NCBI GenBank assembly: GCA_023128895.1
Contig: JAGMDC010000003.1
Span: 219,651-283,650 of the forward strand
DNA length: 64,000 bases
From: Candidatus Parcubacteria bacterium
Lineage (GTDB): Bacteria; Patescibacteriota; Minisyncoccia; Minisyncoccales; JAGMDC01
Direction of reading: 5' to 3'
Under the pieces are notes generated by a model. It was not told the DNA's origin. It saw only the letters and a list, made by a program, of their open reading frames with translations, and did not search any database. The position numbers were made by a program, and so were the translations under genes. Shown piece by piece: positions 49,857 through 61,009 of this stretch. Every line of letters begins with the position of its first letter. The stretch's first letter is position 1.

Positions 49857-50237
49857 CTAGGCATAAAACAAGCGAGCGAGGCTTTGGGTTAAAGAGCTAA
49901 TAAGGTCTTTATTCTCCGTCCAATGATGAATTGCCCGACACACGGATTCAACACTTTCATCTTTCTGTCCATGAATTGTTTTAGGGTCATCGGTTAAGGT
50001 AAAAACCTTACCCTCTTTTTCGACAACAATTCCGTGTGCGACTTCACCCAGTCCCCAACCTTGCTTAAAAAAGCCTTTTGGCCGGGCACGCACGATCGTC
50101 TTGACGCTGTATCCGTCAATAGTCGTCTTGTAACCCTTTTTAATTCTGCCGTAACTCGTTTCGACTTCTTCGCCCGTAGGCTCCCATTGAATCAAACCTG
50201 CTTGGGTAGCATTTCTTAAAAACCCAAATAGATCCAT
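49857..50237 (-). CDS. hypothetical protein
   Basis: Start at the ATG at 50237 behind TAGGAGGTG. Confidence 0.45.
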   Translation of the reverse strand: MDLFGFLRNATQAGLIQWEPTGEEVETSYGRIKKGYKTTIDGYSVKTIVRARPKGFFKQGWGLGEVAHGIVVEKEGKVFTLTDDPKTIHGQKDESVESVCRAIHHWTENKDLISSLTQSLARLFYA

Positions 50238-50511
50238 TTTTTTCTTTACACCTCCTATTTTTTTTATTCCTTTATCCAATATCCAATTTTGATTCCGACA
50301 TAAGAGAAAATATTTTAAATCTCTTTTCCTCGGTAACTAAAATTAGCATAGCACGATTATAAAATATGTCAATAGCCTGCTCCGCGGGTAGGACGTGTCT
50401 AGAACTTTGGATTGGGGAAGAAACGGAAAAATTAACAAAAATTACTTTTATATAAAAAAATAGAGACACAAGAATAAACTCTTATGCCCTTATGCTAATT
50501 ATGGTCTATGG

Positions 50512-52642: not shown

Positions 52643-52888
52643 GATAGTTATTTATAAAAAAAAGAGAAGCTCTCCCTCTCCTTTTGTTCAAGTTATAGTA
52701 TATCTTATTAAATTTGTCAACCTTTTAGGGCTCCCCCGATTTTACACCGCCCAATCTTTGTCTCGCTTTGCGAGGCTTTTGGGATTTCTCTTCTTACTTT
52801 GGTGAATTAAATCAGGTAAAATTATGGTAAAAGTTTGAGGACGAGAGAAACAATGAGCAAACTTAAAAGCCCCATAAAGGGGCTTCTG

Positions 52889-52976
52889 CTTGCTCCGCGG
52901 GTAGCCTGCCTGCCGGCAGGCAGGCGAAGGCAGGCCCAAGGCCCGGGAGGGAGGTTCTCACCACACCCGCAGGAAC
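52889..52976 (-). other. GC-rich structured element carrying a 14-nt copy of the tRNA-Asn 3' end
   Basis: 8-bp closing helix CTGCGGGT/ACCCGCGG (U:G on the minus strand only), a 22-nt perfect palindrome GCCTGCCTGCCGGCAGGCAGGC, and a terminator downstream at 52865-52885. Confidence 0.4.
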
Positions 52977-53006
52977 TATTTGAAAGTAAAAACGCCCTTG
53001 AAGGGC

Positions 53007-53031
53007 GTTTTTAGTTTTAGTGCTCCGCGGG
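53007..53031. terminator. hairpin terminator just 3' of tRNA-Asn
   Basis: AAAAACGCCC-TTGA-AGGGCGTTTTT. Confidence 0.7.
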
Positions 53032-53041
53032 TAGGATTCGA

Positions 53042-53312
53042 ACCTACAACCTTGGCCTTACATCTAATCCTAATGTTTCCAAAAGGGACGGACTATCTCA
53101 TCTCCGCACCGCTTTTATACAAAAAGTTGGTGTGGAGCGAGGCGCTATAAGTCTCTGAACCTTCCGAGCATTCAATCTCGGCTTGGCTGCGGATTGCCAT
53201 TCCATTAAAATGGATTAGGTTTCCCGCAATTCACCTCGTTTTTCAATCAGCATTTCTACTGAAAGCTGCAATATGTTTACAGGGCCTCGCGCTACCATTA
53301 CGCCACCGCGGA
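53042..53312 (-). tRNA. tRNA-Asn(GUU) interrupted by a group I intron (exons 53312-53279 and 53079-53042)
   Basis: - Perfect 7-bp acceptor TCCGCGG/CCGCGGA.
- D arm GCGT/GCGC and T arm GTAGG-TTCGAAT-CCTAC.
- Discriminator G.
- The spliced anticodon loop is CTGTTAA. Confidence 0.8.
53080..53278 (-). ncRNA. group I self-splicing intron (IC3-like, tRNA-anticodon-loop type), 199 nt
   Basis: - Classical P/Q/R/S elements are present: AATTGCGGGAAACC, AATCCGCAGCC, GGTTCAGAGACT, GAGATAGTCC.
- P1 is CUGU|AA paired with UUGCAG, with a U:G at the 5' splice site.
- The terminal nucleotide is G. Confidence 0.8.
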
Positions 53313-53365
53313 ATATAAAAAAATGAAAAATGAAAAAATCAAAATGATAATATAAAATTTAAAAA

Positions 53366-54505
53366 TTATCGGTAGCCAGTGAGTTTTTTTAGTTTATTGT
53401 GCTCACGGATTTTTTCCAAAGATCGGGCTTCAATCTGGCGAATTCTCTCACGGGTAACGCCGAACTCCTGCCCCACTTCTTCTAATGTATGGGTTACAGC
53501 GTCGTCCAGCCCAAACCTCATAGAAAGTATTTTTTGTTCTCTTGGCGTTAAATCAATCAAAATTTCCTGCAAGCGATGGCGAAGCAAAGCTCTTGCCGCG
53601 TCTACGGAAGGAAGCGGTGTCTTTTCGTCTTCCACGAATTCCGCCAAAATACTATCCTCGTCGTCTTCGCCCACCGGCGTTTCCAAAGAAATTGTCTCCT
53701 GCGAAACCCTTCTAATATGATGCACTTTTTCCACATCAATTTCCATTTCCATAGCAATCTCTTCCGGTAAAGGTTCGCGCCCCAAATCCTGTAAAAGCCG
53801 CCTTCGCACTTTTGTATATTTCGCGAGAATTTCCGCCATATGCACCGGAATTCTGATTGTCCTCGCCTGGTCAGCCACGGCTCTTGTAATTGCCTGCCTT
53901 ATCCACCAAGTCGCGTAAGTGGAAAATTTATAACCCCTGCGCCAGTCAAATTTTTCTACAGCGCGAAACAATCCGATATTCCCCTCCTGAATCAAATCCA
54001 GAAGCGTTAAATTCGGGCTTCTTCCAACATATTTTTTGGCAATAGAAACTACAAGCCGCAAATTAGCGCTGGCTAATTCTTTCTTTGCTTCCTCATCGCC
54101 TTTTTCAATTCTGCGCGCCAATTCTTTTTCCTGCGCCGCGGTTAAACGCGAAATTTTCCCGATTTCTTTCAAATACATTTGGATAGAATCAATATGCCCC
54201 GGCAAAATTCTTTTTATTTTGGCTGGCGGTTCAGGGGAAACTTGTAAAAATTCTTTTGCTTCTTTGATTTCTATCCCCTGTTCTTCCAACTGGTTATAAA
54301 ACGCGTCCAATCCTTTTGCGTCCCGTTCCACATCAGGAAAAAAAGATAAAATTTCCGGATAAGTAATAAATCCCCTCATTCTTCCTTTTTTAATAAGCGT
54401 TTCTATTTTTTCAGGAGTAAAAACAGGATTTTTTTTTAATGTCTTTCTAATTGTTTTTTTTACTGTCGGTTTTTTAGCGGCTTTTTTCGCAATTATTTTT
54501 TTCAT
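53366..54505 (-). CDS. rpoD: primary RNA polymerase sigma factor
   Basis: Regions 2.4, 3 and 4.2 are conserved ([29 protein letters not shown]). Start moved to the ATG at 54505 (MKKIIAKK). Confidence 0.9.
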
Positions 54506-54704
54506 ATCGTTTTTATAATGAGAGTGTGGGACAATATTTTTCGTAGCGAGAGTTTCAAAATTTGTGGCAAATTTTTCAAACAATTTTTGAAACCTGTATA
54601 GAATACAAGTTGAGCAAATTTTTGGGAAATTTGACCAAATTTTGGAAATCGCAGCAGAAAGGATATTGTTCTACGCTCTCATAATACCTCTTTTAAGGGG
54701 GTTG

Positions 54705-56477
54705 TCAAACAAAAGAATTTAATTTTTGAGAAAGATTTTGAAATTCTTTTGTGAGCTCATGCACTTTTTCCTGGTTGTTTTCTTTTTCAGATTGTTTTAT
54801 CCGCAAGGAAATCCGGTCTAACTTTGCTTTTATATCCAAAACTTGAATTTCATTAAGACATATCTGAATTTCTTTACCGGGTTTTGCGTCGCTTGTTTCT
54901 TCTTCTGCTATAAAGCAAAGCTCGTTAAAAAACTCGTTCGCATCAGAAGATTCAAAACATTTTTTTTGAAAAAAATCCGGGTCTTTTTTCAAATTGTTCA
55001 AAATCTCCTGAATTTTTTGCGAAAAAAGGGAAAACAAATAGTCATCAATAATAGAAATGTTTTTCGGTTCTTTCATAAGCAAAGCCGCAACTCTTTCTTC
55101 CAACATTTGCCTTCTGGTTTTCTTTTCTCTCTGTATTGTTTCGCTGTTCGGCTTTTGTTGAACTGTTTGGAAAGAAGAATCCTGTTTTATTTGAATTTTC
55201 TTCATTTCTGCCTCTATATCTTCTTGTTTAACGCCTAATCTATCGGATAATTCCTGAAGCCAGTGCGATTGTTCTATCTTATTCGGAATCTTTTTTATAA
55301 CAGGCAATAAAATTTTGGAAATTTCTTTTTTGCCGTCTATGAATTTTGAATCAAATTCCGCGAACGCGGTGTCAAAATAGAAATCTAAAATTGATTTTGT
55401 TTTGCTAACCAATTCTTTCCACTGTTCTGGATTTTGCGAAACAATATCAGCCGGGTCTTGCCCTTCAGGCATCATTACTACCTTTATATTAAACCCTTGC
55501 GCCTGGGCTAAATCAATCCCGCGCTTGGTCGCGGACCCGCCCGCCAAATCCATATCAAAAGCAGTAATCAAATTCTCGGAATATCTCTTCAAAATCATTA
55601 ATTGATAAGAGGTCAAAGCAGTGCCTGATGTGGCAACAACATTTTCCTTCCCTTCTTGATGCGACATTATCACATCTGTCTGGCCTTCCACTAAAATACA
55701 AACATCGGCTTTTCTCACAGCCATTCTCGCTTTATCTAACCCATATAACACTTTACTTTTATCATAAAGCAGGGTATTAGGCGTGTTAACATATTTTGCC
55801 GTATCTTTATTATCGCCGAAAATTCTGCCGGTAAACCCTATTACCTGCCCTGTTAAATCGCAAATAGGAAACATTATTCTGCCCCTAAATCTATCAAAAG
55901 AATCTTCTGGATTTTTCTCTTTTAGAATAGCCAATCCTGCTTTAACAATCTCATTTCTTTGATAATTTTTACTTATTAAGAAGTCTGATAACCCTTGCCA
56001 TGTATCCGGAGCGTATCCGATACGCCATTTTTTGATTGATTCTTCGTTTATTCCCCTATTTAAGAGGTATTCTTTCGCTTCTTTCCCCATTTTACCGGCT
56101 TGCAATTGTTTTTCAAAAAAATATGACGCTAATTCGCAAATTTCATACAAGCGCTGCCTTTCTGTTTTTAATTCAGCGAATTTGGGATCTTGTTTCTTTA
56201 ATTCCACTCCTGCTTTTTGCGCCAGAATACGCAAAGCGTCGCCAAATTCTATCCCCTCCACTTTCATCACAAAACTAAATATGTCTCCCCCAGTCCCGCA
56301 GGATCCAAAACAATGCCAGGTCTGGCGCGCCGGAGAAACAAAAAACGATGGTTTTTTTTCTGAATGAAAAGGACAAAGGGCGCGATAATTCGCGCCTGCT
56401 TTTTCCAGTTTGACATAATTTCCGACAACATCAACTATGTCCAGGCGATTTTTAATTTCTTCAATAGGTGAAAACAT
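54705..56477 (-). CDS. dnaG: DNA primase
   Basis: Zinc finger CPFHSEKKPSF...CFGCG, then a TOPRIM region (EGQTDV). Start set at the ATG at 56477. Confidence 0.9.
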   Translation of the reverse strand: MFSPIEEIKNRLDIVDVVGNYVKLEKAGANYRALCPFHSEKKPSFFVSPARQTWHCFGSCGTGGDIFSFVMKVEGIEFGDALRILAQKAGVELKKQDPKFAELKTERQRLYEICELASYFFEKQLQAGKMGKEAKEYLLNRGINEESIKKWRIGYAPDTWQGLSDFLISKNYQRNEIVKAGLAILKEKNPEDSFDRFRGRIMFPICDLTGQVIGFTGRIFGDNKDTAKYVNTPNTLLYDKSKVLYGLDKARMAVRKADVCILVEGQTDVIMSHQEGKENVVATSGTALTSYQLMILKRYSENLITAFDMDLAGGSATKRGIDLAQAQGFNIKVVMMPEGQDPADIVSQNPEQWKELVSKTKSILDFYFDTAFAEFDSKFIDGKKEISKILLPVIKKIPNKIEQSHWLQELSDRLGVKQEDIEAEMKKIQIKQDSSFQTVQQKPNSETIQREKKTRRQMLEERVAALLMKEPKNISIIDDYLFSLFSQKIQEILNNLKKDPDFFQKKCFESSDANEFFNELCFIAEEETSDAKPGKEIQICLNEIQVLDIKAKLDRISLRIKQSEKENNQEKVHELTKEFQNLSQKLNSFV

Positions 56478-56545
56478 AAAAAGAATGAACGAAATCCTTG
56501 ACAAAATTTTGGCGGCATGCTATCTAAAAAAAAGAGGGGAAAAAA

Positions 56546-60930: not shown

Positions 60931-60938
60931 TGTGATTG

Positions 60939-61009
60939 AGCGGGGCAGGAGAATCGAACTCCCGTAAGTCGCTTTGCAGGCGACTGCATTACCATTGTGC
61001 TAACCCCGC
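60939..61009 (-). tRNA. tRNA-Cys(GCA)
   Basis: 71 nt: acceptor GCGGGGT/GCCCCGC, anticodon arm GTCGC-CTGCAAA-GCGAC, T arm GGGAG-TTCGATT-CTCCT, discriminator U. CCA is not encoded. Confidence 0.9.

Follow-up and report, generated by a model that had tools for sequence, protein, structure and literature searches.

A tRNA-Asn(GUU) gene split by a group I intron downstream of dnaG-rpoD in a Patescibacteria genome

The window analysed here, which is the whole 64-kb stretch of DNA (64,000 nucleotides), raises the question of whether a tRNA gene that default gene finders do not report is nevertheless present, where its boundaries lie if it is split by an intron, and whether it belongs to a kind of gene that is already known. 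The analysis supports, with high confidence, a chromosomal tRNA-Asn(GUU) gene of an uncultivated member of the Patescibacteria (CPR) that is split between U35 and U36 by a group I ribozyme, 218 nt long and without a homing endonuclease. The fold of this intron, its boundaries, the identity of the tRNA and the homology of the intron to known relatives are demonstrated by the observations that follow.

The gene runs from 53312 to 53023 on the minus strand and measures 290 nt to the discriminator base G73. With introns allowed (-i), ARAGORN reported it as tRNA-Asn(gtt) i(35,218) at 53312-53022, and the Rfam covariance model RF00028 matched 53288-53069 of the minus strand with 80.4 bits (gathering score 50, E 7.8e-19), the match covering the full model (positions 1-253 of 253). 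Its membership of the group I introns of RF00028 is reflected in the conserved core helices P3-P8, including the P3/P7 pseudoknot, which are present. A group I intron in tRNA-Asn(GUU), as a first-pass annotation of the sequence had proposed, is present. Neither default-mode ARAGORN nor the Rfam tRNA model detected the locus; the sole tRNA that they reported in the 64-kb window is a tRNA-Cys (60938-61009), and a second tRNA-Asn was not found by either within the 64 kb. It is plausible that the intron-bearing gene is the single tRNA-Asn copy of the organism.

The limits of the exons were taken from ARAGORN -i, from reading of the sequence and from the helix coordinates. The 5' exon (53312-53279, minus strand, tRNA positions 1-35; UCCGCGG UG GCGU AAUGGUA GCGC G AGGCC CUGU) contains the acceptor 5' strand, the D arm, the anticodon-stem 5' strand and C32 U33 G34 U35. 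The 218-nt intron (53278-53061, minus strand) starts with AAACAUAUUGCAG and ends with GGAUUAGAUG, its terminal G lying at 53061, and no ORF of at least 60 aa was found inside it. The 3' exon (53060-53023, minus strand, positions 36-73; UAA GGCCA AGGUU GUAGG UUCGAAU CCUAC CCGCGGA G) contributes U36 A37 A38, the anticodon-stem 3' strand, the variable loop, the T arm, the acceptor 3' strand and G73; CCA is absent from the gene, and CAC comes next. When the exons are joined at 53279/53060, the product is a canonical tRNA-Asn(gtt) of 73 nt that has U1-A72, G73 and a CUGUUAA loop, and ARAGORN gives Asn(gtt) whether the intron is removed from the sequence or not. The intron boundaries, which agree with the RF00028 match, are thus fixed by the U·G pair in P1, by the terminal G and by the canonical tRNA that is reconstituted. 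The junction reads CUGU/intron...G/UAA, and other junctions break either the U·G or the terminal-G rule.

The first-pass annotation had correctly recognized the terminal G of the intron, the spliced loop CUGUUAA with its GUU anticodon and the insertion between 35 and 36, but its coordinates require revision. It had described a 271-nt gene at 53042-53312, strand unstated, with a 199-nt intron and a junction at 53279/53079; this interval is 19 nt short at its 3' side, and the intron and the junction are instead the 218 nt and the 53279/53060 given above. The acceptor stem, D arm and T arm that it described are present in the full gene, but an interval ending at 53042, which is the start of the T loop, omits the 3' half of the T arm and the acceptor 3' strand. 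When the sequence was spliced at 53279/53079, ARAGORN returned an undetermined tRNA with the four-base anticodon tgtg, and thus no usable tRNA.

The P, Q, R and S elements that had been proposed were all found, on the minus strand: P is AATTGCGGGAAACC (53231-53218), Q is AATCCGCAGCC (53195-53185), R is GGTTCAGAGACT (53161-53150) and S is GAGATAGTCC (53099-53090). The helices, likewise given on the minus strand, begin with P1 (53266..53282), in which exon CUGU and intron AA (53282-53277) pair with the internal guide UUGCAG (53271-53266); as the first-pass annotation had stated, a U·G pair, here U35·G, marks the 5' splice site. P2 (53248..53261) is a hairpin, CAGUA-GAAA-UGCUG, closed by a GNRA tetraloop. 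P3 (53238-53232 with 53144-53138) bounds a region (53138..53238) that encloses P4 (53228-53223 with 53193-53188), P5/P5a (53219-53197), P6/P6a (53187-53159) and the P7 5' strand (53155-53150). The internal loop of P5/P5a, CCUAAU...AAUGG, recalls what we take to be the 11-nt tetraloop receptor motif CCUAAG...UAUGG. The region that follows (53090..53137) holds P8/P8a (53137-53102), the P7 3' strand AGUCC (53094-53090) and, between these two, J8/7 (AUGAGAU). P7 is formed as a pseudoknot by the pairing of G(A)GACU with AGUCC and, by homology with other group I introns, would hold the guanosine-binding site. The P9 hairpin CCUUUUG-GAAA-CAUUAGG (53086-53069) is followed by the 3' tail AUUAGAUG, which ends in the terminal G (P9 and tail together 53061..53086), and P10 amounts to 2 bp at best. 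The window copy contains several mismatches, namely two U·U in P9, an A·C in P8 and A27·A43 in the anticodon stem.

Homologues of the intron were sought with the pattern CTGTRAA..GCAGCTT..ATAGTCC..GAAA, built from the parts that are invariant in the window and in two intron-bearing CPR relatives (L075 and L021). The search returned 45 loci from metagenomes, and an intron pattern scan of viral contigs gave no match. Under a uniform boundary rule, 41 of the 45 loci are tRNA-Asn(GUU) genes with an intron of 194-226 nt at 35/36; the others are two tRNA-Tyr(GUA), one locus that is possibly tRNA-Asp and one that runs off its contig. The window and 11 non-redundant relatives of the same and nearest core type were then aligned, and the alignment was used to test a hand-drawn structure consisting of the tRNA arms and P1, P2, P3, P4, P5, P5a, P6, P6a, P7, P8, P8a and P9. 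Across 86 pairs and 12 sequences, 95.2% of the base-pair cells pair, versus 38-44% in controls whose 3' partners were shifted by 1 to 3 columns, and the observed pairing values were reached by 0 of 500 shuffles. Compensatory changes occur in 49 of the 86 pairs; P1, P2 (in 5/5 pairs), P3, P4, P5a, P6a, P8 and P9 all have them. More specifically, U35·G is kept in all 12 sequences and the first intron pair of P1 covaries between A-U, G-C and G·U. P5, P6 and P7 are invariant yet fully paired; the invariance of P7, whose 3' strand AGUCC is the same in all 12 sequences, is partly due to the search pattern, which required the P7 sequence, and invariance at the CTGTRAA, GCAGCTT and ATAGTCC positions is uninformative because the pattern fixes them. 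RNAalifold, applied independently to the same alignment, recovered the tRNA arms together with P1, P2, P3, P4, P5, P6, P6a, P8 and P9. In a strain variant from another sample (L002), the intron has two SNPs relative to the window, located in loops (L6a and L8a).

Upstream of the gene on the same strand (53366..56504, minus) lie dnaG (56504-54705) and rpoD (54583 or 54505 to 53366), recognized from their ORFs and translations and from Pfam families in the ENA metagenome contig L001, and 53 nt separate the rpoD stop from the start of the tRNA. In a 5.9-kb comparison this contig is 99.97% identical to the window, and related samples have JGI and Logan assemblies that match as well; the source samples of the DNA assemblies are SAMN18200502/3, SRR13892596-8 and JGI 3300040951. 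Among the matches listed from species-representative genomes, RpoD relatives are 53-70% identical and belong almost exclusively to Patescibacteria/CPR MAGs, the best values being 62-63% for full-length and up to 70% for partial matches; among these matches the host appears to be without a close species representative. The contig's gene content is in line with a reduced genome, and the host organism is placed within the Patescibacteria.

An intron-less tRNA-Asn occurs at or near the site downstream of rpoD in three other CPR genomes (L008, L019 and L047), an intron-bearing one occupies this site in L075, and in L021 an intron-bearing tRNA-Asn lies about 2 kb downstream of rpoD on the opposite strand. 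Seven genomes from Firmicutes and Thermoleophilia (L025, L026, L027, L041, L062, L067 and L071) also carry an intron-less tRNA-Asn downstream of rpoD, in most of them some 50-200 nt from the rpoD stop (about 900 nt in L026); the dnaG-rpoD-tRNA-Asn order is thus conserved from CPR bacteria to Firmicutes and Thermoleophilia. Among the metagenome loci, rpoD is directly upstream of the intron-bearing gene in 28 of 45. Because of this linkage to rpoD in many lineages and in 28 of the 45 loci, the gene is regarded as a housekeeping tRNA-Asn locus rather than a mobile-element copy.

The region downstream of the tRNA has features of its own. A terminator-like hairpin, AAAAACGCCCUUCAAGGGCGUUUUU (52987..53013, minus strand), comes just after the gene. 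The 3' end of the tRNA (53021-53034, minus strand) is repeated twice further downstream, as CTACCCGCGGAGCA at 52891-52904 and as TCCTACCCGCGGAGCA at 50378-50393. The original 3' flank with its terminator (AGCAGAAGCCCCTTTATGGGGCTTTT) comes after the second repeat copy, and in the relative L117 it directly follows the tRNA; this displacement of the flank behind the second copy indicates an insertion of about 130 nt accompanied by a duplication of 14 nt. Only ORFs without a Pfam match lie in the 2.6 kb that separate the first copy from the third, and six ORFs downstream of the tRNA, when scanned against Pfam, gave no match and no integrase. The tRNA 3'-end repeats look like leftovers of elements integrated at the tRNA 3' end. 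About 590 nt are additionally present in the strain variant L002 (L002 6314-6908 versus window 50237-50435); at the edges of this segment about 200 nt around the third tRNA-end repeat are duplicated, so that the site of this repeat is a variable spot between strains.

Between two terminator hairpins lies a GC-rich segment of about 85 nt (52890-52975, minus strand) that folds into a cloverleaf-like structure of three hairpins (-69.7 kcal/mol, z = -5.3) closed by UCCUGCGGG/CCCGCGGA, a stem that mimics the acceptor stem of tRNA-Asn. Strain L002 and L117 share its conserved box, GGTGTG(T)TGAGAACCT.C..CCC, and the segment may simply be part of the insertion scar. A permissive Rfam search of 52700-53400 returned the intron and noise (miRNA and leader matches on the terminator hairpin) and left the GC-rich segment unmatched. 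A perfect 22-nt palindrome, GCCTGCCTGCCGGCAGGCAGGC, is located at 52904-52925, and near-identical palindromes are found in unrelated CPR loci (L015, L021, L095 and L120).

Introns of this kind in tRNA-Asn are already known. According to the accessible text of a 2020 preprint by Williams (bioRxiv 10.1101/2020.01.27.920355), the number of known intron-split bacterial tRNA types rose from 4 to 21; Asn is not named in that accessible text, but Nakagawa et al. (mSystems 2026, PMC13011429; preprint 2025) attribute the type Asn.4Ug to Williams 2020. In 95 complete Patescibacteria genomes the latter authors reported group I introns in 15 tRNA-Asn(GUU) and 3 tRNA-Asp(GUC) genes, all at 35/36, Asn at 35/36 being the commonest intron-bearing tRNA in the phylum; the view in the first-pass annotation that Asn would be an unusual host, and its list of known host tRNAs, are therefore outdated. 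Standard tools overlook such genes or name them Thr(UGU) (PMC13011429). Two introns self-splice precisely in vitro, among them the tRNA-Asn intron of GCA_016700035.1 at 35/36, and mutation of the terminal G to C blocks exon ligation (PMC13011429). The window locus thus adds one member to a kind of intron that was catalogued in 2020 and spliced in vitro in 2026.

The resemblance between the window intron and this class is extensive. They share the host tRNA, the insertion site and the phylum, the U-1·G pair in P1 and the terminal G, their being missed by default tRNA finders and, as in most members, the lack of a homing endonuclease. The four P/Q/R/S core segments are identical to those of the validated intron of GCA_016700035.1 at 69 of 72 positions, the wider core being 80% and the whole pre-tRNA about 63% identical; compared with six published members (sequences of Table S3, PMC13011429), the wider core is 68-80% identical. 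The window's exact intron sequence is not in the accessible tables of PMC13011429. On the basis of this homology, the locus is considered a further member of a published, experimentally validated class. The validated Saccharimonadia introns differ in having a P7.1/P7.2-like insert of about 30 nt separating P7 from P3', a junction that in the window consists of UAUA only, and the P8 of the window is longer and in two parts.

By homology to the validated relatives, we infer that the window copy would be catalytically active in guanosine-dependent self-splicing, an extrapolation made across a structural difference because the insert of about 30 nt between P7 and P3' in the validated Saccharimonadia introns is absent from it. 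The tRNA-Asn would be transcribed, probably together with or just after dnaG-rpoD; a simple sigma-70 scan of the minus strand from rpoD to the tRNA found no promoter, a scan that is uninformative for a CPR organism. The intron would fold into its P1-P9 core, in which P1 would present the 5' splice site with its U35·G pair; the exons would be held together by the anticodon stem. An exogenous guanosine bound in P7 would cleave after U35, whereupon the terminal G (53061) would take the guanosine site and the 3'-OH of U35 would attack the bond before U36. Ligation of the exons would produce the loop CUGUUAA, and RNase P cleavage, 3' trimming and CCA addition would finish the tRNA. The mismatches in P8, in P9 and at A27·A43 could lower the splicing efficiency of the window copy.

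The 35/36 site of the rpoD-linked tRNA-Asn holds two very different intron cores (L087-L131 versus the window): type A (AATTGCGGGAA / AATCCGCAGCC / GGTTCAGAGACT), which includes the window, and type B (GGGATAACGGTGAA / TAATACCGTGGGAAC / CCGTAGAGACTAGATACC). The core type differs between hosts whose RpoD is 81-84% identical and, in some cases, whose exons are 94% identical (e.g., L087 versus L103), which hints at intron replacement rather than purely vertical descent at 35/36. Near-type-A introns also occur at 35/36 in tRNA-Tyr(GUA) genes with a long variable arm (L120 4026-4228 and L131 1018-1220), and L113 may be the tRNA-Asp(GUC) equivalent. The relative L115 (contig Ga0315294_10006497, 5589-4869 on the minus strand) has an intron-bearing tRNA-Asn whose T loop is disrupted, and a 45-nt direct repeat (5338-5294 and 4913-4869) flanks a cassette of about 425 nt that contains a complete intron-less tRNA-Asn(GUU) (5254-5183) and a putative frameshifted GIY-YIG-like ORF, read by eye. 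In L115, an intron-less copy carried by a small mobile cassette may have taken the place of the intron-bearing gene.

Three other explanations of the window locus have to be weighed against an intron-split tRNA-Asn. A match produced by chance or by faulty assembly has a negligible probability; the metagenomic origin of the sequence is the one circumstance in favor of this explanation, which is opposed by the E value of the Rfam match, by the covariation that backs the fold and by the presence of the locus in independent ENA, JGI and Logan assemblies of several samples, identical or 99% identical where covered, of which only L001 and L002 include the intron. It is extremely improbable, too, that the host gene is a tRNA-Thr(UGU) with its intron at 33/34, even though ARAGORN and tFind give this reading for many members of the class. 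ARAGORN named roughly half of the homologues from metagenomes Thr(tgt) i(33,...), and the same two-base ambiguity is reported in PMC13011429. In the window the Thr(UGU) reading fails because the intron would end in A (...GAUUAGA/UGUAAGG) and P1 would pair U33 with A and not with G. Further arguing against it, ARAGORN itself names the window copy Asn, U1-A72 and G73 are present in the exons, and 35/36 is the site at which the validated relatives are spliced. The spliced exons are identical to intron-less tRNA-Asn at 50-58 of 72 positions, the highest among the isotypes in the loci compared, and to the best tRNA-Thr(UGU) at 44 of 72.

The remaining explanation concerns function rather than identity, and holds that the intron is a decaying, inactive relic, the gene a pseudogene and translation served by an intron-less tRNA-Asn elsewhere. 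The mismatches in P8 and P9 and at 27·43, the insertion leftovers downstream of the tRNA and the example of L115, with an intron-less tRNA-Asn beside a disrupted intron-bearing copy, would be in keeping with such decay. Nevertheless, the catalytic core (P3, P4, P6, P7 and J8/7) is intact and near-identical to that of an active intron, the strain polymorphisms are confined to loops, and the gene occupies a conserved site downstream of rpoD, where other bacteria keep tRNA-Asn. Moreover, the 64 kb contain no second tRNA-Asn, and intron-bearing and intron-less copies of the same anticodon rarely share a genome (PMC13011429). A relic is thus very improbable, and an intron-bearing tRNA-Asn(GUU) gene is the preferred reading. 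Its subgroup is a separate matter.

The Azoarcus tRNA-Ile(CAU) intron (IC3) is compact, at about 200 nt, and has GAAA tetraloops on both P2 and P9, while its P5 contains an 11-nt-type receptor; it differs from the window intron in its tRNA and its site. Of the likenesses to the Azoarcus and Anabaena tRNA introns noted in the first-pass annotation, that to Anabaena is borne out by comparison with the Nostoc/Anabaena PCC 7120 tRNA-Leu(UAA) intron (reference sequence from Table S4 of PMC13011429), to which the P/Q/R/S elements are identical at 60 of 72 positions (83%). Both introns are small and ORF-less and lie in the anticodon loop, both have P2 and P9 hairpins and a short P7-P3' junction without P7.1/P7.2, and in both the anticodon stem keeps the exons together. 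The Nostoc intron differs, however, in its position (34/35 of tRNA-Leu versus 35/36 of tRNA-Asn in the window), its P1 guide sequence, its host phylum and its longer P6 and P9 extensions (249 nt). It is IC3 by the database cited in Williams 2020 (bioRxiv 10.1101/2020.01.27.920355). On the other side, 25 of 28 introns at 35/36 are labelled IA, and no Patescibacteria tRNA intron is labelled IC (PMC13011429). The window and four relatives (L103, L106, L112 and L101) have only UAUA between P7 and P3', whereas two others (L089 and L102) and the published Saccharimonadia introns have a P7.1/P7.2-like insert of 30-45 nt there.

Judging from these sequence features, there is a basis for both an IA and an IC3 view of the window intron. 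One reading, conceivable but doubtful, is that the window represents a stripped-down lineage of Patescibacteria tRNA-Asn introns in which the IA-like P7.1/P7.2 insert has been lost, leaving an architecture indistinguishable from that of cyanobacterial and proteobacterial IC3 tRNA introns. Taken with the two core types found in hosts of 81-84% identical RpoD, this would suggest that the IA/IC split of bacterial tRNA introns is no deep divide, and that CPR lineages exchange or replace introns at 35/36 although no homing endonuclease resides in them.

For the published view of the class, the locus provides one more example and comparative detail, and no new principle. Its main importance lies in annotation: because default finders miss the gene, the genome would seem to lack a tRNA-Asn and would score as less complete, a point about annotation also made in the published work on the class. 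If this is the sole tRNA-Asn gene, every Asn codon in a reduced genome would depend on an RNA-catalysed, guanosine-dependent reaction, and such dependence of Asn decoding on intron splicing is already the published view of these introns.
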